DNA of 64,000 nucleotides from a virus, in IMG/VR virus record IMGVR_UViG_3300000976_000009, positions 173,151 through 237,150 of that record; one strand, given 5' to 3'. Positions 9,103 through 40,224 of this stretch are shown piece after piece (position 1 is the first letter of the stretch; each line of letters begins with the position of its first letter). Below the pieces are notes generated by a model that was not told where the DNA came from, searched no databases, and saw only the letters and a program-made list of their open reading frames with translations. The position numbers and the translations under genes are program-made.

Positions 9103-9588
9103 ATGGATTTTAATACATATACCAGTAAGGGTTTAACCCACCTACTTCATGAGGAATTAAATAATACTAATATTAATAGTGATTTGGTAAAAAGAATTAA
9201 TATTGAATTAAAGAGACGAATAGAATCCAACCAATTTCAAATGTCAGTAGAAGAACAAATCCATTGGATTATAATGGACACTAACTTTGAGCAAATACAT
9301 GATATTGAAGAGTTTCTTATGTTAAATAATGGAAAACCATTTAAACCAACAACCATTAATGGTTTAATGTTAGTAGTTAAGGAAATGTTAATAAGGATTG
9401 CTAATACGGTGGAAAATGATGATGGATATTCATCATATAAAATTGGTAATTTTTTAGTAGAAAAGACTATATACGATGGTGTTATGTGTTTATCATTTAA
9501 ACATGTAGTAGGTGGTTGGGATATGGATTATGATGCAGTTACTTCACAAAATTATTGCGAACCAGAAGACGAATATACAGGAGGATGA
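9103..9588 (+). CDS. hypothetical protein
   Basis: ORF after TAATTTTG. Confidence 0.55.
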   Translation: MDFNTYTSKGLTHLLHEELNNTNINSDLVKRINIELKRRIESNQFQMSVEEQIHWIIMDTNFEQIHDIEEFLMLNNGKPFKPTTINGLMLVVKEMLIRIANTVENDDGYSSYKIGNFLVEKTIYDGVMCLSFKHVVGGWDMDYDAVTSQNYCEPEDEYTGG

Positions 9589-10657: not shown

Positions 10658-10687
10658 TTGCTAATTAAAATAACTTTAGTATCTTTG
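10658..10687 (+). promoter_or_regulatory. Bacteroidota sigma70 promoter of tRNA array 1
   Basis: TTG-N19-TATCTTTG. Confidence 0.8.
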
Positions 10688-10746
10688 TAGTATATTTAAA
10701 AACAAGGGGTAACCCTTAATAGAAATAAAAAACAAAAACATTTTCA

Positions 10747-10830
10747 ATGCAAACAATTGTAAACATATTAACACTTAACTTAGTCTTATGCCTAGTGGTA
10801 TTAGACGGGTCGAGCTATGTGTTTATGTAA
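10747..10830 (+). CDS. leader peptide 1, MQTIVNILTLNLVLCLVVLDGSSYVFM (Leu/Val/Cys-rich)
   Basis: A-rich translation start, 27 codons, 3' end overlaps the antiterminator strand. Confidence 0.8.
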   Translation: MQTIVNILTLNLVLCLVVLDGSSYVFM

Positions 10831-10886
10831 GTATAGAAAACTTAAACATATTTAAGCTCGATTCGTAACTGAATCGAGCTTTTTTT
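10811..10886 (+). terminator. attenuator 1: antiterminator and intrinsic terminator
   Basis: Terminator AAGCTCGATTC-GTAACT-GAATCGAGCTT+T run; competing pairings CGAGCT:AGCTCG and ATGTGTTTA:TAAACATAT. Confidence 0.85.
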
Positions 10887-10899
10887 ATGTATAATAAAT

Positions 10900-10983
10900 G
10901 CCTATGTGCTTGAGTGGTCGAAAAGTGCGGTCTGCAAAACCGTAAGGGAAACCTCATCGTTGGTTCGAATCCAACCATAGGCT
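10900..10983 (+). tRNA. tRNA-Cys(GCA), long variable arm
   Basis: GCGGT-CTGCAAA-ACCGT; T-loop TTCGAAT; U73. Confidence 0.8.
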
Positions 10984-11000
10984 CAAAAATAAAACAATAG

Positions 11001-11071
11001 GTCGGGGTGACCGAATGTTTAGGTAGTTAGCTGCAACCCTCCTTATGCTGGTTAGATTCCATTCCCCGACT
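11001..11071 (+). tRNA. degenerate tRNA-Cys(GCA)
   Basis: GTCGGGG/CCCCGAC acceptor, CTGCAAC loop, mismatched anticodon stem. Confidence 0.5.
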
Positions 11072-11103
11072 CTACAATAATGTAATAACTAAAAATGAGG
11101 GTT

Positions 11104-11447
11104 ATGAAACAGGGGTAACAAATAAGACTAGAGAATTTAGAAAACAATTCTTAGTCGAACGAGAACACACAGGAAGAGAAATAGTCACTTTCTGGGAAAC
11201 GGGTAAATCATATTTTATTGAATATATTGAACCGAGAAGCATGAATAAGAGTGGTTGGGGTGATATTGACCCAGCGACTAAAAAGGTAACTGGTTCTTAT
11301 GGTAATAAGTACAAAGGTGCAATTAAAGCAGATGAATCTATGATTACTAAAGAGAATGGCTTCGAAAATATTATTGAAGGAATGGGTTCTCCATATGCAC
11401 AAATTGAATGGATGCATAATAAATGGAAAACTGAAAATGGATACTAA
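11104..11447 (+). CDS. hypothetical protein, probably frameshifted near its start
   Basis: Frame of ORF 11241-11447 is open far upstream; ATG at 11104 joins it if the GGGG run had one more G. Confidence 0.45.
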
Positions 11448-11619
11448 AAATGGATACATTAAGAAGTATAAAATTGACTAGAGAACAAAAAAAAGAAATA
11501 AGGAAAATAGTCAATAGATACATGAGGAAGCAAAGAAATCGAAAGATTAGACAACTAAAAGAATGGTTGGTGCTTCATAAGAATTAAATAAAGTGGAAGG
11601 TTGTAATTCCTTCCAATAT

Positions 11620-11691
11620 TGGAGTATAGCTCAGCTGGAGAGCGGGTGTGTTACATGCACTAGGTCGGGGGTTCGAATCCCCCTACTCCAA
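11620..11691 (+). tRNA. tRNA-Val(TAC)
   Basis: GGTGT-GTTACAT-GCACT cloverleaf. Confidence 0.8.
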
Positions 11692-11698
11692 CTAAAAT

Positions 11699-11770
11699 GC
11701 TCTGTGGGTGTGATGGTTAGCATACTTGTTTTACATGCAAGTTGAGTAGGTTCGATTCCTACACAGAGTA
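11699..11770 (+). tRNA. tRNA-Val(TAC)
   Basis: CTTGT-TTTACAT-GCAAG. Confidence 0.8.
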
Positions 11771-11777
11771 CAAATAT

Positions 11778-11858
11778 GGGGATGTGGCGAAATGGTTCAC
11801 GCAGCGGTTTTAGAAACCGTATCTTAATTGACTGTGGGTTCGAATCCCACCATCCCTA
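11778..11858 (+). tRNA. tRNA-Leu(TAG)
   Basis: GCGGT-TTTAGAA-ACCGT, variable arm. Confidence 0.85.
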
Positions 11859-11872
11859 CTAAAAATTTATAT

Positions 11873-11952
11873 TGCGGGTGAGTGAAACGGATATATAAAT
11901 CATTCTGGGCTCATAACCCACGAGATACTAGGTTCGACTCCTAGACCCGCTA
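11873..11952 (+). tRNA. initiator-type tRNA-Met(CAT)
   Basis: GGG-CTCATAA-CCC, 1:72 mismatch. Confidence 0.75.
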
Positions 11953-11958
11953 CAAGAT

Positions 11959-12029
11959 GGTTCCATAGTTTAATGGGAGAACGTCACCTTGACATGGTGA
12001 TAGCGAAGGTTCGATTCCTTCTGGAATCA
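11959..12029 (+). tRNA. tRNA-Val(GAC)
   Basis: TCACC-TTGACAT-GGTGA. Confidence 0.85.
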
Positions 12030-12044
12030 CAAATAGTACTACAC

Positions 12045-12133
12045 GGGGGTGTGGGCAAATTGGAAAAGTCAGTGGGTTTAAGCCCCACGGTAAACGTAAG
12101 ATACATCTGCGGGTTCGAGTCCCGCCACCCCTA
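12045..12133 (+). tRNA. tRNA-Leu(TAA)
   Basis: GTGGG-TTTAAGC-CCCAC, variable arm. Confidence 0.8.
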
Positions 12134-12145
12134 CTAACTATTCAT

Positions 12146-12233
12146 TGCGGGGTAGTGTAATTGGTAACATGCTGGGCTCATAACCCAGAGAAGCGGTAAC
12201 ACCGTGTTCTAGGTTCAACTCCTAGCCCCGCTA
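12146..12233 (+). tRNA. initiator-type tRNA-Met(CAT) with long variable arm
   Basis: CTGGG-CTCATAA-CCCAG, 1:72 mismatch. Confidence 0.75.
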
Positions 12234-12239
12234 CAAGAT

Positions 12240-12324
12240 GGTCGCATGGTGGAATTGGTAGACACGCCAGACTTAAAATCTGGTGCCCATTACGGGCGTG
12301 TGGGTTCGACTCCCACTGCGACTA
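12240..12324 (+). tRNA. tRNA-Leu(TAA)
   Basis: CCAGA-CTTAAAA-TCTGG. Confidence 0.9.
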
Positions 12325-12350
12325 CAAGGGGTTCGAAGTACAAGAACCTT

Positions 12351-12434
12351 GGCGATATGGTGAAACTGGTAAACACAGCCTCGGATGGGGCGGGGTTTGA
12401 CTCCCCACTGTTGGTTCGACTCCAACTATCGCCA
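12351..12434 (+). tRNA. Leu-type tRNA body with a 4-nt anticodon loop
   Basis: Intact acceptor, D, variable and T arms; GCCTC-GGAT-GGGGC. Confidence 0.6.
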
Positions 12435-12437
12435 CAA

Positions 12438-12524
12438 AGGATGATTACAGCAAATGTAACTAGGTTAAAAAACATGATTCAAACTCAAGTTCAGATGGTT
12501 CAAATCCATTAAATTCATCATCCT
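12438..12524 (+). ncRNA. stem+TACAGCAA RNA with anticodon(CAA)- and T-arm mimics
   Basis: AGGATGAT/ATCATCCT closing stem; TGA-TTCAAAC-TCA; ATGG-TTCAAAT-CCAT. Confidence 0.65.
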
Positions 12525-12530
12525 GTCCAT

Positions 12531-12614
12531 CCCCAAGTGGTGGAATTGGTAGACACGCTGTCCTAAGAAGGCAGTGCTAGTAATAGCGTGTGGGTTCGAC
12601 TCCCACCTTGGGGA
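12531..12614 (+). tRNA. tRNA-Leu(AAG)
   Basis: CTGTC-CTAAGAA-GGCAG. Confidence 0.85.
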
Positions 12615-12619
12615 CAAAT

Positions 12620-12701
12620 GGGGGTATGGCGGAACGGTATACGCAGCAGTTTCAAAAACTGTGGTCCTAGAGACATGTGGGTTCGACTCCCATTACCCTT
12701 A
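12620..12701 (+). tRNA. tRNA-Leu(CAA)
   Basis: GCAGT-TTCAAAA-ACTGT. Confidence 0.85.
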
Positions 12702-12743
12702 CTAAAATTAGGGGTTCTAATTTATTTAACTTATATTTGTATT

Positions 12744-14322: not shown

Positions 14323-14352
14323 TTGCCATTTAATAAAAGTTTTGTATCTTTG
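14323..14352 (+). promoter_or_regulatory. Bacteroidota sigma70 promoter of tRNA array 2
   Basis: TTG-N19-TATCTTTG. Confidence 0.8.
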
Positions 14353-14405
14353 TACCATACTTATAAACAACGAGACTAAATTTAGTCTTACAAAAATAAA
14401 AAAAA

Positions 14406-14495
14406 ATGAACACATTAATTAACATATTTGAATTTAGCTTTGAAGCTGCCGAGGATGATTGCATCTTGGGAAGGTCAAGTTATGTCAAAAGTTAA
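14406..14495 (+). CDS. leader peptide 2, MNTLINIFEFSFEAAEDDCILGRSSYVKS (Phe/Glu/Ala/Asp-rich)
   Basis: A-rich translation start, 29 codons, ends similar to leader 1. Confidence 0.8.
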   Translation: MNTLINIFEFSFEAAEDDCILGRSSYVKS

Positions 14496-14552
14496 GTGTT
14501 AAAAAACATAAACTAAACATTACAAGCCTTCCAGAAACGGAAGGCTTTTTTT
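14469..14552 (+). terminator. attenuator 2: antiterminator and intrinsic terminator
   Basis: AAGCCTTCC-AGAAAC-GGAAGGCTT+T run; competing pairings GGAAGG:CCTTCC and AGTTATGT:ACATAAACT. Confidence 0.85.
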
Positions 14553-14562
14553 ATGCACATAT

Positions 14563-14634
14563 GTGACCTTGGAAGCAGCGGTACTTCGCTTGGTTGAAGC
14601 CCAAGAAAGCTCGGTTCGAATCCGAGAGGTCACA
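14563..14634 (+). tRNA. tRNA-Phe(GAA)
   Basis: CTTGG-TTGAAGC-CCAAG. Confidence 0.8.
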
Positions 14635-14639
14635 CACAT

Positions 14640-14712
14640 AGCCCCATCGACTAGCGGTCAAGGTCGCCACCCTCTCAAGGTGGAAACATCGGTTCGAATC
14701 CGATTGGGGTCA
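14640..14712 (+). tRNA. tRNA-Glu(CTC)
   Basis: CCACC-CTCTCAA-GGTGG. Confidence 0.85.
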
Positions 14713-14722
14713 CTAAGATTTA

Positions 14723-14734
14723 GTTCTTTGACAT
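14723..14734 (+). promoter_or_regulatory. boxA-like antitermination site
   Basis: GTTCTTTGACAT, also present at 32769. Confidence 0.6.
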
Positions 14735-14747
14735 ATTGAAATGATTT

Positions 14748-14819
14748 GGTGCGGTAGCTCAGAGGTAGAGCAGTAGGTTGAAAACTTACGTGTCGGGGGT
14801 TCGAATCCCTCTCGTACCA
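14748..14819 (+). tRNA. tRNA-Phe(GAA)
   Basis: GTAGG-TTGAAAA-CTTAC. Confidence 0.9.
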
Positions 14820-14825
14820 CAAAAT

Positions 14826-14900
14826 GCTCGGTTCGTCTAACGGCTAGGACGGGTGGTTTTCAGCCATCAAATAGGGGTTCGATTCCCCTACCGAGTACCA
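14826..14900 (+). tRNA. tRNA-Glu(TTC), encoded CCA
   Basis: GGTGG-TTTTCAG-CCATC. Confidence 0.85.
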
Positions 14901-14948
14901 AGTGTCAGTTTCTAGTGGTTCTGAACGAAATAAAATTTCACTAATTTT

Positions 14949-15020
14949 CGCCCGTTCGTCTAACGGTTAGGACGTTAGGTTTTCAACCTAAAAATAGGAG
15001 TTCGATTCTCCTACGGGTGA
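14949..15020 (+). tRNA. tRNA-Glu(TTC)
   Basis: TTAGG-TTTTCAA-CCTAA. Confidence 0.85.
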
Positions 15021-15090
15021 CTATGTTAATAAACACTGCAATGTTTATTACAGAAACCAATGAACTATTTGCAGATAGGTAAGTTGGTTT

Positions 15091-15162
15091 TGAATGTTCG
15101 TCTAGCGGTTAGGATACTGCCCATTACGGGTGGAGACACGGGTTCGAATCCCGTACATTTAA
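15091..15162 (+). tRNA. Glu-type tRNA body with aberrant anticodon loop (CATTACG)
   Basis: Glu-like D arm TTCGTCTAGCGGTTAGGA; loop lacks U33. Confidence 0.55.
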
Positions 15163-15232
15163 CAAACGCCCGTTGAGATATTACGAATCGATAGGGAGAA
15201 TGAGTATGACTGTTAGGAAAGACTAACAATAT

Positions 15233-15307
15233 GGTCCAGTGGACGAAATTGGTTTAGTCGTCACCCTTTCAAGGTGAAGGTTGCGGGTTCGATTCCCGTC
15301 TGGACTA
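15233..15307 (+). tRNA. tRNA-Glu(TTC)
   Basis: TCACC-CTTTCAA-GGTGA. Confidence 0.85.
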
Positions 15308-15318
15308 CTAAAAACTAC

Positions 15319-15391
15319 GGTCTGTAGGTCAAATGGTTAAGATGCCTCCCTGTCACGGAGAGCGGAGCGGGTTCGACTCCCGTATGGACCG
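15319..15391 (+). tRNA. tRNA-Asp(GTC)
   Basis: CTCC-CTGTCAC-GGAG, G73. Confidence 0.8.
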
Positions 15392-15399
15392 CAAAGTAA

Positions 15400-15470
15400 C
15401 GTCCATTGGTGTAATGGTAACATGACTGGTTGTCTCCCAGTTGCTAAGGGTTCGATTCCCTTATGGACGG
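15400..15470 (+). tRNA. tRNA-Asp(GTC)
   Basis: ACTGG-TTGTCTC-CCAGT, G73. Confidence 0.8.
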
Positions 15471-15481
15471 CATAATCACAC

Positions 15482-15554
15482 GGCTGGTGTGGTGTAACGG
15501 TAGCATACTTCCCTGTCACGGAAGAGGTTCGGGGTTCGAATCCCCCATCAGCCG
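15482..15554 (+). tRNA. tRNA-Asp(GTC)
   Basis: CTTCC-CTGTCAC-GGAAG, G73. Confidence 0.85.
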
Positions 15555-15561
15555 CAATAAT

Positions 15562-15637
15562 GGTCTAGTGAGCCCCATTGGTAGGGGATTTGCACTGTCT
15601 CTGCTCAAAAACGAGGGTTCGACCCCCTCCTAGACCC
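15562..15637 (+). tRNA. divergent tRNA-Asp(GTC)
   Basis: GCA-CTGTCTC-TGC with bulged stem. Confidence 0.55.
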
Positions 15638-15640
15638 CAT

Positions 15641-15710
15641 GAAGTCATAGTTTAGTGCAAGAACGCCACTTAGACGGGTGGAAATACGAGTTGGATTCTC
15701 GTTGACTTTA
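15641..15710 (+). tRNA. degenerate tRNA, 6-nt anticodon loop
   Basis: GAAGTCA/TGACTTT acceptor; CCACT-TAGACG-GGTGG. Confidence 0.45.
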
Positions 15711-15720
15711 CAAATATTTT

Positions 15721-15797
15721 GGGGGCACATGTCCCAAGGCTGGCGAGGTAGGTTTGCACCTTCCCTGTGGTGGGTTCGATTCCCACTGTCTCCACCA
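15721..15797 (+). tRNA. tRNA-Ala(TGC), encoded CCA
   Basis: G3:U70 pair, TTTGCAC loop. Confidence 0.7.
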
Positions 15798-15809
15798 AAA
15801 TAACATAAT

Positions 15810-15882
15810 GGGGCTATGGTGAAACTGGCTATCATCGTTGACTTGCACTCAGCAGTTCCGAGTTCGAACCTCGGTAGCTCCA
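15810..15882 (+). tRNA. tRNA-Ala(TGC)
   Basis: GGGGCTA/TAGCTCC acceptor, GTTGA-CTTGCAC-TCAGC. Confidence 0.85.
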
Positions 15883-15883
15883 C

Positions 15884-20144: not shown

Positions 20145-20652
20145 TTTTTAAAATAAACTTGCAAGTTTGAAATATTAATTATAAATTTGCACAGTTAGAA
20201 ATAACAAAACGTTTTTTGAAATCTTGGAGTAATTAAAAATAATGTTTGGTAGTACAAAGATAGAGCGGTGCTCGGTAGGTACATTAACGAGGTAGGGACC
20301 AAATACATATACAGAATGCAGTTCTATTTGTCTTGCAAGACTAGAACAGGTAAACATTATCCCCTTAATTGGATTAGTGTAGGTTAAAATGGTGGTTCAA
20401 ATCCCTCATTCTGTGCAAAATTGGGGTGTTGGTCGCACAGGTCCTTGACGGACTGTTATTCTAGATGTGCATTGTGGTTCGATTCCACGTACCCCAGCAA
20501 GTCTCAGTTAGAAATGACAATAATTAAATTAATAAGGTTGAACCCCTTAACCACTTAGACAGACAGAGACAGGTTCTGTAAGTAAATTATGAGGAATAGT
20601 AGGTATAGTTTATTCTAGGCTCTGCGGGAAGTGCACTTCTACTAGAATGCTT

Positions 20653-20725
20653 GGTGACGTAGCTCAGTTGGTAGAGCAATGGATTGAAGCTCCATGTGTC
20701 GCTGGTTCGAATCCAGCCGTCACCA
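20653..20725 (+). tRNA. tRNA-Phe(GAA)
   Basis: Canonical cloverleaf, ATGGA-TTGAAGC-TCCAT. Confidence 0.9.
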
Positions 20726-20869
20726 CGAAATCTTGCCTATATCAGCACCGCTAGTTTTATAGGATAGTTAAATACCTACCCCGTGCAGAAACGATTGCAG
20801 TCGTCTGTGGTAGAGGTGTTTATAAAATACGATATAGGACTGAGACGAGCGGGAAAACCTATATCACAT

Positions 20870-20982
20870 GGAAAGGTAGCTCAGATAGGTATATAGTAGA
20901 TAACATGTTATTAGATGATATACTTCGGTAGAGCAATGGGTTGAACACTCATGTGTCGTTAGTTCGAATCTAACCCTTTCCA
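20870..20982 (+). tRNA. tRNA-Phe(GAA) with ~40-nt D-loop insertion
   Basis: AGCTCAG-[insert]-GGTAGAGC; ATGGG-TTGAACA-CTCAT. Confidence 0.7.
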
Positions 20983-22389
20983 CAGGTCTGGATGAATGTT
21001 ACAAGAGACGGAGCTTTTTAAATGTCTAAACAGTAACCACGTTTGATTTTCGTGATGAACTAATCTGCTGGGTAGTGCCCAAAAGAAAAACCACTACATG
21101 GGGAAAATCCAGAAGTAACTGGTAAATCGGCTGGCGTTAATCGCACGGAATCAAGTCGTAATTAGGGTGAACAAAAATCCGTTATACCTTAAGATTGTAA
21201 GTTAAAATCTTACTTTCTCCACAAGTTCGCTCCACGCTGGGGAGATTTGTTTCTTATCTCCTATGATGAGGCAGAACACCAAAATATCAGCTGAGAAGTG
21301 TGATTGAGGTTATTACTGTAGAAAAACAGGTGCAAGCAACTTTACTAAAACATCTCTTATGGAGGTTTGGTTCATACGAATAGATATTGTTCTATTGAAG
21401 GTACAGTTTGGGCTAAAAACATCATATAAGAGTTCTCGGAAGTTTGAGAAGACGTAATTTTAAAAGAGATGACATCGGGAAAGACTGAAATTTGGGTTGG
21501 GAGTTACGATTGGTTGAATGGTTCCTATTAGTACGGAACACCAAGGCAGAACATTAGTTTATTTGAGTGGCTTAAGACACGAAATGATTTAGGTGGGTCT
21601 GTATTAGGTTCGGGCGAATCCCGAAGGTTGCTGGTTCGAATCCAGTTCAATCCACGAATCTCAATACACATAGTCAGTGTATTAAATGTTGCATAACAGA
21701 CTCAGTTAAAAAAATGAGAGAGCAACGGAAGGAAAGTTTTCGCAAACCTACTTAGCTTTTGTAAGGTAAAAGCAACTTGGGGGTGTAACCAATTGTGGGT
21801 TATTGATGGGGCAATACCATCCACCTCCACAACTAACCACCAATGCCTCTGCTAGCATGCACAATTTTGGTATCGAAGGAAAACTAGTTAGTACTGAGAC
21901 AGAGTTAAGCGATTCTCTAGGGTAGTTAAAATCGCAAATGGGGTTATCACGCCTTTTGGATTACGTTGGAAAGTTACAACCAACGCCTTTGGGTAATATT
22001 GGTAAGTCGGTAACATATTATAAGGTGTACATAAATGTACTAGTTACACACTACTTGTAATGTAAGAATGATAATGTTGGTTCGAGTCCAACTAATCCCA
22101 CTAGTGGTAGTTTGATTGAATGCTTGGGTCGCTCTTAAGTTGAAGGTTAAATATTACTTGCTCGAAGGGTCGCTCCCAAAGAGTCCCTTAGAAGTTCAAT
22201 TGGCTGAACGCCCTCTCGATGGGGGAGGCTGAGGGTTCGAACCCCGTCTAAGGTACAAAGAAGCTAAACGTATAATAGCTTTGGTGATATAGAGCAGTTG
22301 GTAGCTCAGTTGGCGAGGGAGTAATTCCGAACCGAAAGGTCATAGGTTCGACTCCTATTATCACTACAAGCGTGTCCCAACACGTTAAT

Positions 22390-22520
22390 AAGGTTAAAAA
22401 ATTGTTACAGCAAATGTAAAAACTTGTATGTGAAACAACAGGACTAGGTTCGAATCCTAGCATAGAGATGGGAACTATGTGGTGTAATGGTAGCATTGAT
22501 AAAAAAGCAATTTTGCCCTT
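22390..22520 (+). ncRNA. circularly permuted tRNA-His(GTG)-like RNA on a stem+TACAGCAA module
   Basis: Order is anticodon arm, T arm, loop-closed acceptor (CATAG/CTATG), D arm; ends pair AAAATTGT/GCAATTTT. Confidence 0.75.
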
Positions 22521-22994
22521 TATGGAGTAAGTGTATGTCTGTCATAATTCGTATGAGTTATGATTTTGGGTTCGATTCCCATTTACCCCACAATATTAGT
22601 GGTGAGTCCTACTTAGCCTATTTTCATAGGGGTACAGGTACTTAATGAATGTATAACAGCTACTAATTTTTGAGATGGCTAGGAATGCGTGGAGTCATGA
22701 CCACAATGGGAGTTCAATTCGACCACATCTCACTAAAGAATGAGAGCCCAATTGGGTAACTCGCAGTGCGTTTAACAGACCAACTGACACACGTTTGAGT
22801 GGTAGTAATTACCCACGATAATTTTATACCTCTATCATCTGGTAACACTAGTGTTACCTTGTGAAACGTATAGTTGTGAAGGGACTGTGTGCCGAATCTT
22901 GAATTCCGTGACTTGGGATAGGGGTGTCAACACATGGGTTAAGGTAAGCCAGTCGGTTTAGTCACCGAGAAATTGTTATCTCATTCTTTTTAAT

Positions 22995-23135
22995 AGGGAA
23001 GTAGCTCAGTTGTTTAGAGCGTGTGGAAAGCAACCTTAGCTTAGATTATATCTAAGTATCCGAAAGGGTATTCCGTTAGGAAATAAGGTTTGGTTGTGAG
23101 TACCAAGGTCGTTGGTTAGAGTCCAACCTTCTCTA
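22995..23135 (+). tRNA. tRNA-like RNA with large multi-hairpin insertion in the anticodon arm
   Basis: AGGGAAG/CTTCTCT acceptor, GCTCAGTTGTTTAGAGC D arm, T arm. Confidence 0.6.
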
Positions 23136-23160
23136 CTAATAATAAATAAATTAGTTAACT

Positions 23161-23370
23161 ATGAGTAAAGTAACAGTAATTTTAAATCGTGTAAATTCAG
23201 AAGCACAAGGTGGTTTTGATAAAGAGGTAATTACATTAGCTATAGACCCAAACTGGTCAATTCCAGCAGTACATAGGGTAAATGGTCATAATTATGAGGC
23301 TAGACAAAAAGGTCAAGAAGGTGGTGTTGTAACATATTCTTTGTGTGATTCTGCTATTCCACAAGATTAA
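23161..23370 (+). CDS. small hypothetical protein inside the ncRNA island
   Basis: 69 aa, A-rich translation start. Confidence 0.55.
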   Translation: MSKVTVILNRVNSEAQGGFDKEVITLAIDPNWSIPAVHRVNGHNYEARQKGQEGGVVTYSLCDSAIPQD

Positions 23371-24246
23371 AATGGGTCTCAGAGTGCCAGCTCCTATAGA
23401 ACCTCCCCAGAGGCGGAAGCAAGCAAGGATATATGGTTGTAGCGGTAGTTCTGAGTAACCTATTTAAGATAATGTCGTTCCCTTAGCGGGGTTCATGTGC
23501 TTATGACGAATACCCAGTGTGGTCGCTTAATTGAAGTTCGTTAGACTATTTTTTAGATGTTGTTCTTTCGTGGTCTTAAAATATGAAGGGAAAAACATTT
23601 TAATTGGAGATTTGAACATATAGAGTTCAAGGGTCTTACCTTCCGTGATGGTGACTAATTCGGAGAGCGAAAACGAGAGTAGCTAGACCCTACAAACAGA
23701 AGAATGTTAAATCTATTAGTAAGTCATAGTCTTTGCTGACAATGGGTGCTAATATGTCTGGGCTACGTAGCAGACGTTTAGGTATGAGGGGCAGAACCTC
23801 ACTCCAGTTCAATTGGTGAGAGATACCAATAAAGTTTACAAGGTACTTCAAAAACTTGAGGCTGATATACCCACGGTCATACAGAGGGGTCTGATTGGAA
23901 TATGGGTATTACTAAACCCACCACAGCGATAGTTGACTTTTTATTGGTAGTAAGACACCATTTGTTTTTGAAAAGGAAAAACATTGAACATCTAGCATAC
24001 GGAATCTCAATATGTGACATTGGTTAAAGGAGATTGATTTCGACTTTAACCACATAAATGTGAAAAGAGTGCGCTCGATGATATTAATATCATAATTAAC
24101 ATAGACGGGTTCGACCAGAGGCTGGCATGAGATGTAGGTTTAAGAAAGGTGATAAACACGGATTAGTTCCGACCTATTATTAATTAACGTTAGGACTACC
24201 AATATTTCACATAAAAAATAATTATAACCATTAAATAAATAAAACA

Positions 24247-32555: not shown

Positions 32556-32585
32556 TTGCTAATTAAAAAACTTTTAGTATCTTTG
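32556..32585 (+). promoter_or_regulatory. Bacteroidota sigma70 promoter of tRNA array 3
   Basis: TTG-N19-TATCTTTG, nearly identical to the array 1 promoter. Confidence 0.8.
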
Positions 32586-32598
32586 TAATAGTTATTAA

Positions 32599-32725
32599 CA
32601 GTATACGCAAGGCGTGAAGCCTAGCGGAACGGGTATGTTATATCTAAAAGGTTCAGAAGAGATAATCTAATTATTTGAACATAGAAATTTAACAAACCCG
32701 ATTCGTAACTGAGTCGGGTTTTTTT
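32599..32725 (+). terminator. attenuator 3: truncated leader frame QYTQGVKPSGTG.., antiterminator and terminator
   Basis: AAACCCGATTC-GTAACT-GAGTCGGGTTT+T run; CGGGTATGTTA:TAACAAACCCG. Confidence 0.75.
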
Positions 32726-32790
32726 GTGTCCATAATTTACTAAGCGGGACCTTAATAAAAGTTTAGTTGTTCTTTGACATCGTGTAATAT

Positions 32791-32863
32791 CTAGGTATGG
32801 GAAAGTTGGTAATCCGCTTGCTTTGGGAGCAAGAGACCGCTGGTTCGAGTCCAGCTACTTAGA
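32791..32863 (+). tRNA. tRNA-Pro(TGG)
   Basis: CTTGC-TTTGGGA-GCAAG. Confidence 0.85.
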
Positions 32864-32903
32864 CGAATTGGGTTAACACTAAACCAGTGAGGGAAGTGTA
32901 ATA

Positions 32904-32977
32904 CGGGGAGTGACCAAGGCTTTAGGCACGGGCTGTTTGGTGCAGTCAGTTGGTCGGTTCGATTCCGACCTCCCCGA
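32904..32977 (+). tRNA. tRNA-Pro(TGG)
   Basis: GGCTG-TTTGGTG-CAGTC. Confidence 0.7.
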
Positions 32978-33063
32978 CAAAGCTGGTTAATTAACATCGA
33001 GACTAGAATTTGAATTGGTTCTCGCCAAGACTTATAATAGGTTAATTGCCAGCACTAATACTA

Positions 33064-33137
33064 CGAGTGGTGACTAAGGTTTTAAGCACGGGGGCATTGG
33101 AAGCCTCAGTTAGTGGGTTCGATTCCCACCCATTCGA
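33064..33137 (+). tRNA. tRNA-Pro(TGG)
   Basis: GGGGC-ATTGGAA-GCCTC. Confidence 0.7.
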
Positions 33138-33140
33138 CAA

Positions 33141-33212
33141 CGAGAGGTCGTCTACCAGATAAGGCACCAGTCATTGGGACTGGAAAAGAAGGTTAAAGCC
33201 CTTCCCTCTCGA
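33141..33212 (+). tRNA. degenerate Pro-type tRNA
   Basis: CGAGAGG/CCTCTCG-A; aberrant loop CATTGGG. Confidence 0.45.
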
Positions 33213-33217
33213 CAACT

Positions 33218-33302
33218 GCGGAGATAGTATAATGGGTAACATACTAGTTATAGTACGCCAGCAATCCAGCTGGAAATGTGAGTTCGAATCTCGCTCTCCG
33301 CT
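33218..33302 (+). tRNA. degenerate Gly-type tRNA (expanded D loop, 6-nt anticodon loop)
   Basis: GCGGAGA/TCTCCGC-T; CCAGC-AATCCA-GCTGG. Confidence 0.45.
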
Positions 33303-33316
33303 CTAATAATTAACAC

Positions 33317-33387
33317 TGACCTATGGTGTAATGGTAGCATAAGAGTTTTTGGCACTCTTGGTCTAGGTTCGAACCCTAGTAGGTCAA
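33317..33387 (+). tRNA. tRNA-Gln(TTG)
   Basis: AGAGT-TTTTGGC-ACTCT. Confidence 0.85.
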
Positions 33388-33394
33388 CAAATAT

Positions 33395-33479
33395 TGTGGT
33401 GTATGCAAATTGGCAAGCAGCCAGACTTTGAATCTGGTGTGGTATATCCCGACTGTAGGTTCGAACCCTACCACCATAA
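33395..33479 (+). tRNA. tRNA-Gln(TTG), long variable region
   Basis: CCAGA-CTTTGAA-TCTGG. Confidence 0.75.
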
Positions 33480-33545
33480 CAATTATTTAATATGATTATA
33501 TTATACTTTTAAAAAAAAGAATGTACCTTTGCAAAAATTTTAGTT

Positions 33546-33836
33546 ATGATTAAGAAAGAAATTAAAGTATTAGATACGGTAACAACACCATCAGAGATAG
33601 CCCAACACGCATTGGTTAATTTCTTATATGGTCTATTAAATGGTTTAGTTATCATTACCATGATTCTTGGTAACCCTTGGTTGATATTATGTGCCTATTA
33701 CATATTGAAACAAGTAGAGAGTAAAATTTTAAATAGGAACAAATATACCAGTAAGTTTGGAAAGAGGTATTTATTTCCAATTCCTAGTACATTAGGATTT
33801 TTATTAGGTTGGTATATTGGAACTTTCTTTAAATAG
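33546..33836 (+). CDS. small membrane protein
   Basis: Hydrophobic segments; TACCTTTG promoter. Confidence 0.6.
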   Translation: MIKKEIKVLDTVTTPSEIAQHALVNFLYGLLNGLVIITMILGNPWLILCAYYILKQVESKILNRNKYTSKFGKRYLFPIPSTLGFLLGWYIGTFFK

Positions 33837-33911
33837 AAAGACAACGAGTAAATGATTGTGTGACCCTAATGCATTAGGAGCTATAAGGTTTGATTCCTTT
33901 CTACTCGACAA

Positions 33912-33976
33912 AGAATGATTACAGCAAATGTAACAACGACCAAACTTTTAATTTGATAAACGTAAAAAATCATTCT
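33912..33976 (+). ncRNA. stem+TACAGCAA RNA with a Lys(TTT) anticodon-arm mimic
   Basis: AGAATGAT/ATCATTCT closing stem; CAAA-CTTTTAA-TTTG. Confidence 0.7.
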
Positions 33977-33982
33977 GTATTT

Positions 33983-34064
33983 GGGTGTCTATGCAAATGG
34001 CGAAGCAAGCGAGTTGTAACCTCGTGACATAGAAACATTGGGGGTTCGAATCCCTCGGCACCCA
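33983..34064 (+). tRNA. tRNA-Tyr(GTA)
   Basis: GCGAG-TTGTAAC-CTCGT. Confidence 0.8.
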
Positions 34065-34109
34065 CACAATTTGGTTAGCACTAGACAAAATGAACTAGGA
34101 AGTGCAATT

Positions 34110-34191
34110 GGGGGTATTGAGCAATTGGCTGCTCAGCAGACTGTAAATCTGTCGCTTCACGGCATTGGGGGTTCGAATCCCTCTACCCCCA
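34110..34191 (+). tRNA. tRNA-Tyr(GTA)
   Basis: GCAGA-CTGTAAA-TCTGT. Confidence 0.9.
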
Positions 34192-34308
34192 CAATAAGTG
34201 GGATATACATGCAGCAATGTTTGGATTACGCCTAGTACAGATTAATTATCTGTTGATGAAAGGATATAAACGAGAGGTTCCTTTTAAGTCCCACTGACGT
34301 TATTATAT

Positions 34309-34393
34309 GCCTATGTCCCATAGTGGTCGATTGGAACGGTTTTGTAAGCCGTAGGTGAAATTCCCACCGTTGGTTCGAATCCAACCATAGGCT
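34309..34393 (+). tRNA. tRNA-Thr(TGT), long variable arm
   Basis: ACGGT-TTTGTAA-GCCGT; same acceptor and T arm as tRNA-Cys at 10900. Confidence 0.7.
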
Positions 34394-34399
34394 CAAAAT

Positions 34400-34471
34400 G
34401 CTCTTTTAGTATAATGGCTATTATACGTCCTTGGTAGGGATGGGATTCCAGTTCGATTCTGGGAAAGAGCT
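34400..34471 (+). tRNA. tRNA-Thr(GGT)
   Basis: CGTCC-TTGGTAG-GGATG. Confidence 0.8.
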
Positions 34472-34479
34472 CAAAATTT

Positions 34480-34551
34480 GCCACCTAAGCATTTAGGGAT
34501 GATGTATGCTCTTGTAAAGCATGGAACGCAGTTCGATTCTGCGATGTGGCT
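34480..34551 (+). tRNA. tRNA-Thr(TGT)
   Basis: ATGCT-CTTGTAA-AGCAT. Confidence 0.7.
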
Positions 34552-34561
34552 CAAATAAAAT

Positions 34562-34634
34562 GCGAGATGTAGCTTAATGGCTGAAAGCGTCTGCCTTCCA
34601 AGCAGAAGACGGGGTTCGATTCCCACATTTCGCT
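34562..34634 (+). tRNA. tRNA-Gly(TCC)
   Basis: TCTGC-CTTCCAA-GCAGA. Confidence 0.8.
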
Positions 34635-34642
34635 CAATACAT

Positions 34643-34714
34643 GCAGTATTGGTGTTAACGGTAGCACATGGGCCTTCCAAGTCCGAGGTGTGGGTTCGAA
34701 TCCCATGTACTGCA
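34643..34714 (+). tRNA. tRNA-Gly(TCC)
   Basis: TGGGC-CTTCCAA-GTCCG. Confidence 0.8.
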
Positions 34715-34808
34715 CATACTGGTTTTCGTCACCGATTTACCGTTAGGACCCATCGTGGGTTAACAGAATACAAATGAGGTGTGACAGGTGTGGAGAGACA
34801 CACAAAAT

Positions 34809-34880
34809 GCAGTAGTCGTATAGTGGCTATTACACCGCATTACCAATGCGGAGACGACAGTTCGATTCTGTTCTACTGCT
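34809..34880 (+). tRNA. tRNA-Gly(ACC)
   Basis: CCGCA-TTACCAA-TGCGG, U73. Confidence 0.8.
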
Positions 34881-34945
34881 CAAACTATTTTAGACTATAA
34901 CACACCCTTTACCTTGGTCTATGATATTTATTAATAAATGAAAAT

Positions 34946-35648: not shown

Positions 35649-35690
35649 ATGAAAACTTTATTGAAACTTAAACACAAGTGTAAACAGTAA
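35649..35690 (+). CDS. Lys-rich leader peptide MKTLLKLKHKCKQ
   Basis: A-rich start; 5 Lys codons; lies immediately before a hairpin and three tRNA-Lys. Confidence 0.55.
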   Translation: MKTLLKLKHKCKQ

Positions 35691-35733
35691 AGCATTCGGC
35701 TCATAGAGTTACGGATGCTAATAAGAAAATTAT

Positions 35734-35809
35734 GCCTCCGTAGCTCAACTGGTTTTAGAGCACTCGACTTTTAATCGAGGGGTTCTGGGTTCGAGTCCCA
35801 GCGGGGGTA
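35734..35809 (+). tRNA. tRNA-Lys(TTT)
   Basis: CTCGA-CTTTTAA-TCGAG. Confidence 0.9.
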
Positions 35810-35815
35810 CTAATT

Positions 35816-35889
35816 GCACCTCTAGCAATCGTGGGATAGCAACTGGCTTTTAACCAGTACGGAGAAGGGTTCGACTCCCTTGGGGTGCA
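35816..35889 (+). tRNA. tRNA-Lys(TTT)
   Basis: ACTGG-CTTTTAA-CCAGT. Confidence 0.8.
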
Positions 35890-35895
35890 CAATAT

Positions 35896-35969
35896 GCCTT
35901 CGTAGCAATTGTGGAAAAGCGACTGACTCTTAATCAGTATGGAAATGGGTTCGACTCCCATCGGGGGTA
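35896..35969 (+). tRNA. tRNA-Lys(CTT)
   Basis: ACTGA-CTCTTAA-TCAGT. Confidence 0.8.
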
Positions 35970-36333
35970 CTAATTAAAACCTAGTACTATGAATATAAGA
36001 AATATAGAAAGAAGATTATTAGAAGCGTATTCTGATGATTATAGAAGAATCTGGGTACAATACACCCAACTCAGCAAAAGAAGGTCTGAGTACAGAGTTT
36101 GCCTAACTCTATTCCCAATTACGGGACAATACACGATGTTATTTAGCGGAACTATTAATACAATAGATTACGATACTGTTTCAAAAGTAATTGAAAACAG
36201 TAGGGGCTCTTAATTTAAATTATTTTTTAGATAGTGGTTAAAAATTAAATGAATTATTATAAATAAAAAAATATTCATACTAATTATATGAATTATTAAT
36301 TTAATTTACTATCTTTGTAAAAAAAAGATAAAT

Positions 36334-39907: not shown

Positions 39908-40224
39908 TTGACGAACCAGAGAACGTATCGCTGCGTTGGTACTTGATATCAAGGTAGAGGAACTTCGAGGCAACTTTGCTTAAGGTAGGAGATAACAGCA
40001 ACCCCGCAAATAACGGGGGAACGAAAGTGTAACGTGCAATCGCTTTGACTACTGAGGTTGCAACACATACAGACTTGAGCGGGTGAGCAACGCAATGATA
40101 GTCGGGTAGTGGCACCCACTGAAATGTGGGATGTAGTAATTAACTACATAGATAAATGATACGATGGTATATTGACTGGTTACCTATATACTTAACAGAA
40201 CTTCGGGCAAGCTCAGTTCGTCAA
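39908..40224 (+). ncRNA. rnpB: RNase P RNA (divergent)
   Basis: P1 TTGACGAAC/GTTCGTCAA; GAGGAAC.., GAAAGTG, GAGCAA, AGATAAATGAT and ACAGAAC conserved blocks in the correct order. Confidence 0.85.

Follow-up and report, generated by a model that had tools for sequence, protein, structure and literature searches.

What decides whether transcription enters a cluster of phage transfer RNA (tRNA) genes that lies directly behind an intrinsic terminator? The question is raised by a 64,000-nt stretch of DNA, hereafter the window, that forms part of a virus record of 353,143 bases (IMGVR_UViG_3300000976_000009, positions 173,151 to 237,150). In this window a promoter motif, a short leader open reading frame (ORF) and a terminator stand in front of a group of Leu, Val, Cys and Met tRNA genes, referred to here as array 1. 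The original prediction, drawn from the sequence, was that the leader is a codon-sensing attenuator. Conservation of the ORF and its spacing, covariation, a predicted switch that falls on the Leu/Val/Cys block, and a leader composition that tracks the tRNA set all support that reading, and we give it a probability of roughly 85%: array 1 is probably preceded by a ribosome-coupled attenuator, in which polymerase reads into the Leu/Val/Cys tRNA genes only when those codons are decoded slowly.

The promoter, the 27-codon ORF, the terminator and the tRNA genes were all found where they had been claimed when the sequence was re-checked with ARAGORN and by folding, and the core codons of the leader read as originally quoted. 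The parts of the unit, with hairpins numbered as in attenuators, are as follows.

10658-10687, + strand: Bacteroidota-type promoter motif TTG-N19-TAtcTTTG (motif match to the consensus)
10704-10717, + strand: small predicted 5' hairpin in the untranslated leader; similar ones occur in relatives L003, L138 and L139
10747-10830, + strand: leader ORF of 27 codons, translation MQTIVNILTLNLVLCLVVLDGSSYVFM
10768-10803, + strand: sensing block, codons 8-19, with Leu/Val/Cys at 10 of 12 (read from the sequence)
10759-10823, + strand: predicted protector helix (1:2), -17.8 kcal/mol (folding)
10805-10866, + strand: predicted antiterminator helix (2:3), -24.3 kcal/mol (folding, covariation)
10854-10886, + strand: intrinsic terminator (3:4) with a U7 run (z -6.9)

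Transcription of array 1 would start near 10693. The terminator stem (10854-10881) has 12 pairs at -15.7 kcal/mol, and its U run (10880-10886) is separated from tRNA-Cys by 13 bases only. A terminator within 330 bases downstream was seen for 4 of the 196 promoter-motif matches on both strands, and all four precede tRNA arrays; no further + strand promoter motif was found between the array 1 terminator and the final tRNA gene behind it. As in a ribosome-mediated attenuator, a short ORF lies between promoter and terminator and its regulatory codons are tied to the downstream tRNA set. Leu, Val, Cys or Met occupies 13 of the 26 codons after the start (binomial P ~1e-4 against the amino-acid use of the genome).

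Folding predicted that the three helices compete with one another, and that the 3' end of the leader pairs with the 5' side of the terminator, as had been claimed, to the exclusion of the terminator itself. The free full-length RNA folded as protector plus terminator. We then masked a ribosome footprint codon by codon, a check that had been proposed with the original prediction. Terminator probability was below 0.1 when the aminoacyl (A) site lay on codons 10-16 and at least 0.8 elsewhere, and footprint edges of +9 and +15 moved this switch window by one codon. The switch was retained by 1 of 300 synonymous recodings and by none of 300 codon-order shuffles. At equilibrium in array 1, therefore, a stalled ribosome is predicted to leave the antiterminator and a ribosome at the stop codon to leave the terminator.

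Relatives were gathered via a marker gene located between arrays 1 and 2, giving 86 loci, many of them short; 13 distinct units in which Cys comes first, the window included, were aligned. The same promoter motif stands ahead of all 11 distinct Cys-first units that were mapped. All 13 orthologues retain a start codon, the frame and a stop (the start is GTG in L204), with an open frame of 24-35 codons in each as compared to 0-13 in the +1 and 3-27 in the +2 frame, and the stop codon lies 23-43 bases ahead of the terminator stem (26 units). This collection of related upstream regions, also proposed at the outset, bore out both the conservation of the leader ORF and a concordance in composition.

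The antiterminator and terminator are conserved as mutually exclusive structures, judging by predicted folds together with covariation. The 3' half of a leader finds a stronger partner in its own terminator arm than in the arms of its orthologues (-14.2 and -9.5 kcal/mol, respectively; 11 units, P 1e-5). When three near-copies were dropped and L204 was added, the resulting 10 units gave a mean of -14.3 kcal/mol for the own arm versus -9.6 +/- 0.9 kcal/mol, matched in 0 of 200,000 permutations, and the own arm ranked first for 6 of the 10 leaders. In the alignment, 89.6% of the 96 cells of the 8-pair antiterminator helix were paired; double changes numbered 7, spread over 4 pairs, a result matched in 2 of 500 shuffles, and slid controls were at most 52% paired. 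The leader core follows its tRNA set: L/V/C residues fill 85 of 101 core positions in nine leaders, and F/E/D/A residues 118 of 122 in 11 sister leaders. Differences among leaders were non-synonymous in 424 cases and synonymous in 169; composition, and not the peptide sequence, is what has been kept.

How closely does the leader match the array? The genes of array 1 are listed below.

10900-10984, + strand: tRNA-Cys(GCA) (ARAGORN, Rfam)
11001-11071, + strand: tRNA-Cys-like gene (26.7 bits, under the Rfam cut-off of 29)
11241-11587, + strand: two short ORFs within the array, 68 and 45 amino acids (no PHROG match)
11620-11771, + strand: two tRNA-Val(TAC) (ARAGORN)
11778-11859, + strand: tRNA-Leu(TAG) (ARAGORN)
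11874-11951, + strand: tRNA-Met(CAT), initiator-like (ARAGORN at relaxed threshold; features read from the sequence)
11959-12030, + strand: tRNA-Val(GAC) (ARAGORN)
12045-12325, + strand: tRNA-Leu(TAA), tRNA-Met(CAT, initiator-like) and tRNA-Leu(TAA) (ARAGORN)
12351-12435, + strand: degenerate Leu-type tRNA-like gene, called 'Pro' by ARAGORN (sequence, ARAGORN)
12531-12702, + strand: tRNA-Leu(AAG) and tRNA-Leu(CAA) (ARAGORN)

The expected count of 13 tRNA or tRNA-like genes was reached with 11 default ARAGORN calls, the second Met gene at the relaxed threshold and the Cys-like gene. The 'Pro' call at 12351 has a Leu tRNA-like body with a 4-nt loop, as read from the sequence. Two parts of the proposed match did not survive. 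In each of the two Met tRNAs the anticodon stem is closed by three G:C pairs and positions 1:72 are mismatched, which we take to be marks of initiator tRNAs, and Met thus drops out as an elongation match between leader and array. Agreement at the level of codons, which had been offered as a test, is not informative because almost any Leu, Val or Cys codon would find a matching anticodon in the array. The array has a Leu(CAA) gene, yet the leader has no TTG codon, and in the closest relative the leader carries GTC while no Val(GAC) gene was called. The single codon signal is an avoidance of GTT, used for 1 of 26 Val codons in nine related leaders versus 2605 of 4859 in long ORFs, and this could also stem from RNA structure. 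We also noted that the Leu tRNA at 12531-12615 has an AAG anticodon where relative L003 has GAG; both would read the leader codon CTT. The frame of the 68-amino-acid ORF (window 11100-11447) continues open upstream with no in-frame ATG, suggestive of a frameshift near the start of that ORF.

Fused arrays in relatives provide a natural experiment. In L134, L137, L183 and L203, the Cys/Val/Leu genes are succeeded by tRNAs for Asp, Ala and Phe that have no leader of their own. Codons for D, A or F at leader positions 8-22 number 6-8 in these four leaders versus 0-2 in nine others. The fused-array leaders carry no Glu codon; in the fused lineages Glu tRNAs stand with the Pro/Gln array, and a Glu codon is present in the core of its leader where this is readable (L134, L137, L217). 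On the marker tree the fused state requires 2-3 changes.

A similar correspondence was seen across the genome, in which further leader-fronted arrays occur.

14323-15883, + strand: sister unit, array 2, with promoter motif, leader 14406-14495 and terminator 14524-14554 (ARAGORN, folding)
32556-34881, + strand: sister unit, array 3, with promoter motif, 5'-shortened leader 32599-32670 and terminator from 32694
35649-35970, + strand: Lys sister unit, with a 13-codon Lys-rich ORF, a hairpin without U run and three tRNA-Lys

The leader core of array 2 reads Phe/Glu/Ala/Asp and its tRNAs are Phe/Glu/Asp/Ala. Array 3, with a GTG at 32614 in its leader, supplies Pro/Gln/Tyr/Thr/Gly, and a His/Trp/Ser/Asn/Ile/Met/Arg array with a matching leader frame lies outside the window at genome position 154315. 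Jointly the five leader-fronted arrays cover the 20 amino acids, once each, with few stray tRNA calls outside them. The cognate pairing of leaders and arrays ranked 1 of 120 permutations of the five units, with array sets assigned by hand and the two ATG-less leaders read stop-to-stop. In the leaders of arrays 3 and 4 (window 32586-32670; genome 154309-154386) the promoter joins the middle of the leader directly; the untranslated stretch and ATG that are retained in L126, L222, L223 and L224 are lacking there. In the Lys unit, the 13-codon ORF (window 35649-35719), which L126 shares, has 5 Lys codons; a promoter motif was not found, and with its hairpin lacking a U run this unit may work differently.

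Several observations weigh against the attenuator as proposed. An equilibrium scan of the full RNA in 26 units gave no terminator dip in about half of them, array 2 of this genome included. The predicted switch therefore held for array 1 at equilibrium, and its generality did not, the equilibrium switch being found in a minority of orthologues; the model needs kinetic control in the units without a dip. We approached this with a co-transcriptional model in which the RNA was cut at the terminator loop, as it would be while polymerase nears the U run. Here the 5' arm was held by upstream RNA until the matched block ended and was then freed in every unit but L148 (26 of 27). Array 1 RNA cut in the same way also favoured the antiterminator with no ribosome present, so that an untranslated array 1 leader terminates as full RNA and favours the antiterminator as truncated RNA, and there is no clean prediction for removal of the ATG. 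The ATG has been lost in two leaders of this genome; these could be de-repressed, could use a different start or could reflect errors of assembly. As for the comparative evidence, L203's own terminator comes only seventh of 10 as a partner for the L203 leader, the 89.6% pairing count leans toward the window because the 8-pair structure was derived from its own sequence, and the P values overstate independence because the orthologues are related. The fused arrays possibly have a single origin, and at three of the four fused loci (L183 excepted) some Asp/Ala/Phe tRNAs have the promoter motif of the marker gene upstream of them. Lastly, small tRNA clusters in L211 and L212 have no leader.

Could something other than the decoding of matched codons set read-through? 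An antitermination factor from phage or host, acting at one set stage of infection, might govern it, with a captured leader now contributing little. The two leaders without a start would fit, as would a motif, GTTCTTTGA, presumably boxA-like, found after each of the terminators in arrays 2, 3 and 4. This motif lies downstream of those terminators and is absent from array 1, in none of 14 loci was ribosomal RNA (rRNA) seen to follow it, and covariation and composition tracking in the leaders indicate continued selection; we regard such a factor as improbable. The motif is common near the tRNA arrays of other phages, and in this genome occurs at window positions 14723 and 32769 and genome positions 142590 and 154756, after attenuators and ahead of the transfer-messenger RNA (tmRNA) gene.

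An attenuator that reports a general slowing of translation, with codon identity merely tuning the response, fares no better. The co-transcriptional model lends it something, in that a stall at any of codons 1-17 frees the antiterminator, the unmatched N-terminal codons included, and leaders of distant relatives use nearly all amino acids. Against this, the equilibrium window in array 1 comprises codons 10-16 only, and the five leaders partition the code in step with the five arrays.

A shade less probable still is that the ORF encodes a small membrane peptide on a short transcript of its own, which the terminator ends and from which the tRNAs arise by leak-through. Residues 1-19 of the leader have a mean hydropathy of 2.16, and the terminator is strong. 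However, sister leaders of the same layout are acidic or polar, Asp occurs within the hydrophobic run of the fused-array orthologues, the peptide has no Pfam match, the excess of non-synonymous differences runs counter to a conserved peptide, and the 3' codons of the leader track the terminator sequence. Direct, T-box-like binding of tRNA by an untranslated leader is very hard to credit: the leader does list codons and two copies in the genome lack an ATG, but Rfam searches, run at the gathering score and again with E values up to 10, matched neither a T-box, with its stem I, specifier loop and antiterminator motif, nor any other leader family, and start, frame and stop are kept in every orthologue.

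Taken together, these results favour the ribosome-coupled attenuator, and we infer leader translation and regulated read-through from them. The host RNA polymerase would transcribe the unit. Once a ribosome has reached the stop codon it would mask segment 2 (codons 20-27), and the terminator would be free to form, 13 nt ahead of tRNA-Cys. During a pause on codons 10-16 the ribosome would instead mask segment 1, segment 2 would pair with the 5' arm of the terminator, and transcription would proceed into the tRNA genes, whose products would relieve the pause as a negative feedback on tRNA supply. Since a ribosome is blind to the difference between an uncharged and a missing tRNA, the switch would respond alike to starvation, to host nucleases and to over-demand. 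The selected signal would be a shortage of usable tRNA, through loss or over-demand, more than amino-acid starvation, because extra tRNA supplies no amino acids and because phage tRNAs rescue infection from tRNA-cutting defences, as shown in PMC11555353. A tentative extension, to which we lean slightly less than evenly, is a partitioned tRNA thermostat in which five leader-gated arrays split the 20 amino acids and a ribosome stalled by nuclease action activates the matching replacements.

Beyond the close relatives, a motif search in distant phages found the same leader-terminator-tRNA layout with broader arrays, among the matches listed. A narrow leader pattern gave six viral matches, four of them real units; among bacterial matches an ATG leader with terminator was found in 0 of 15, a result with which host attenuators as a source may be compatible. 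In L133 no leader was seen within 300 bases before its first called tRNA. The leader region gave no match beyond tRNA bodies in the annotated phage collection, in which the marker protein also had none, and no relatives were found for the gene at 9103-9588. In MW353175.1, one of the nearest cultured phages by capsid protein, no leader-terminator unit was seen before the Ser/Glu/Gln genes; for its tRNA-Cys the view extended only 46 nt upstream.

The genome is that of a jumbo phage and encodes a T4-type major capsid protein and a terminase. Its closest cultured relatives by capsid protein, Flavobacterium phage immuto among them, are distant (38-43% identity), and the nearest have 3 and 1 Rfam tRNA matches. 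TTG...TAnnTTTG motifs, which we take to be the Bacteroidota housekeeping promoter, lie upstream of many genes, and would on that reading make the host a member of the Bacteroidota. ARAGORN at relaxed threshold called 84 tRNA and tmRNA genes. Other genes specify a Glu/Gln-tRNA synthetase, a pair of RNA ligases and a nucleotidyltransferase of the PolyA_pol family, and the genome contains a signal recognition particle (SRP) RNA (window 23363-23469) and a weak match to RNase P RNA (window 39916-40214, 29.9 bits, far under the cut-off). This content indicates that the phage invests in translation, and probably in tRNA repair as well.

A tRNA call with a UUA anticodon (window 15091-15163), inside the Glu run of array 2, led us to consider an alternative genetic code; this was dropped because TAA, the main stop codon, ends 211 of 258 long ORFs. 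Downstream, about 4 kb (window 20180-24200), preceded by a promoter motif at 20159, are nearly without long ORFs and hold many tRNA-like remnants, the SRP RNA and structured sequence. TRNA-sized elements with a common ACAGCAAAT occur inside arrays (window 12437-12527, near 22400 and near 33915) and match no Rfam family at its cut-off; the genome carrying them encodes a DUF2828/DUF7788 protein.

Why phages carry tRNAs is a long-running question, for which codon bias, decay of host tRNAs and anticodon nucleases have been considered. If the attenuator reading is true, leader switches make it possible to test which tRNA family is in short supply, at what time and against which host defence background; attenuation is extended from enzymes to the decoding molecules with a direct feedback loop closed; and small, portable sensors of tRNA status become available for Bacteroidota. 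The thermostat, if true, would be a protein-free and codon-resolved counter-defence, in which each leader records the tRNAs that the phage runs short of.

Attenuation is a known principle, and tRNA genes as its target appear to be new within the literature searched, in which we could not find a description of leader-peptide attenuation of tRNA genes and from which subscription journals are mostly missing. In the tRNA-rich region of T5 and SP15, phage tRNAs replace host tRNAs cut by defence nucleases; expression is ascribed to a strong promoter, and 'attenuat' and 'leader' do not occur in the main text of PMC11555353. The trn operon of Anabaena is a long tRNA array that is silent until translational stress, under the repressor TrcR (PMC8421152, PMC10272220); a DNA-binding repressor there acts on one 26-gene operon, unlike the codon-specific leaders of the phage, and PMC8421152 has no occurrence of 'attenuat' or 'leader'. 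The enterobacterial leader-peptide attenuators (ilvGMEDA, ilvBN and thr, as well as trp, his, leu and pheA), whose theory and operons are set out in PMC1183508, likewise combine a short ORF, regulatory codons, competing hairpins and an intrinsic terminator, and multivalent leaders of the ilvGMEDA type sense several amino acids, Leu and Val included, as here. They control enzyme genes, whereas the phage unit controls tRNA genes, and the unit has no sequence match to the Rfam leader families of amino-acid operons. The pheM-pheST attenuator of E. coli, which controls a synthetase protein for one amino acid, likewise acts on the decoding machinery, with the synthetase and not tRNA genes as its target. 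Unlike the ilv-type attenuators, the phage unit yields a product that itself reads the sensing codons; since tRNA genes are what it gates, that product would relieve its own signal.

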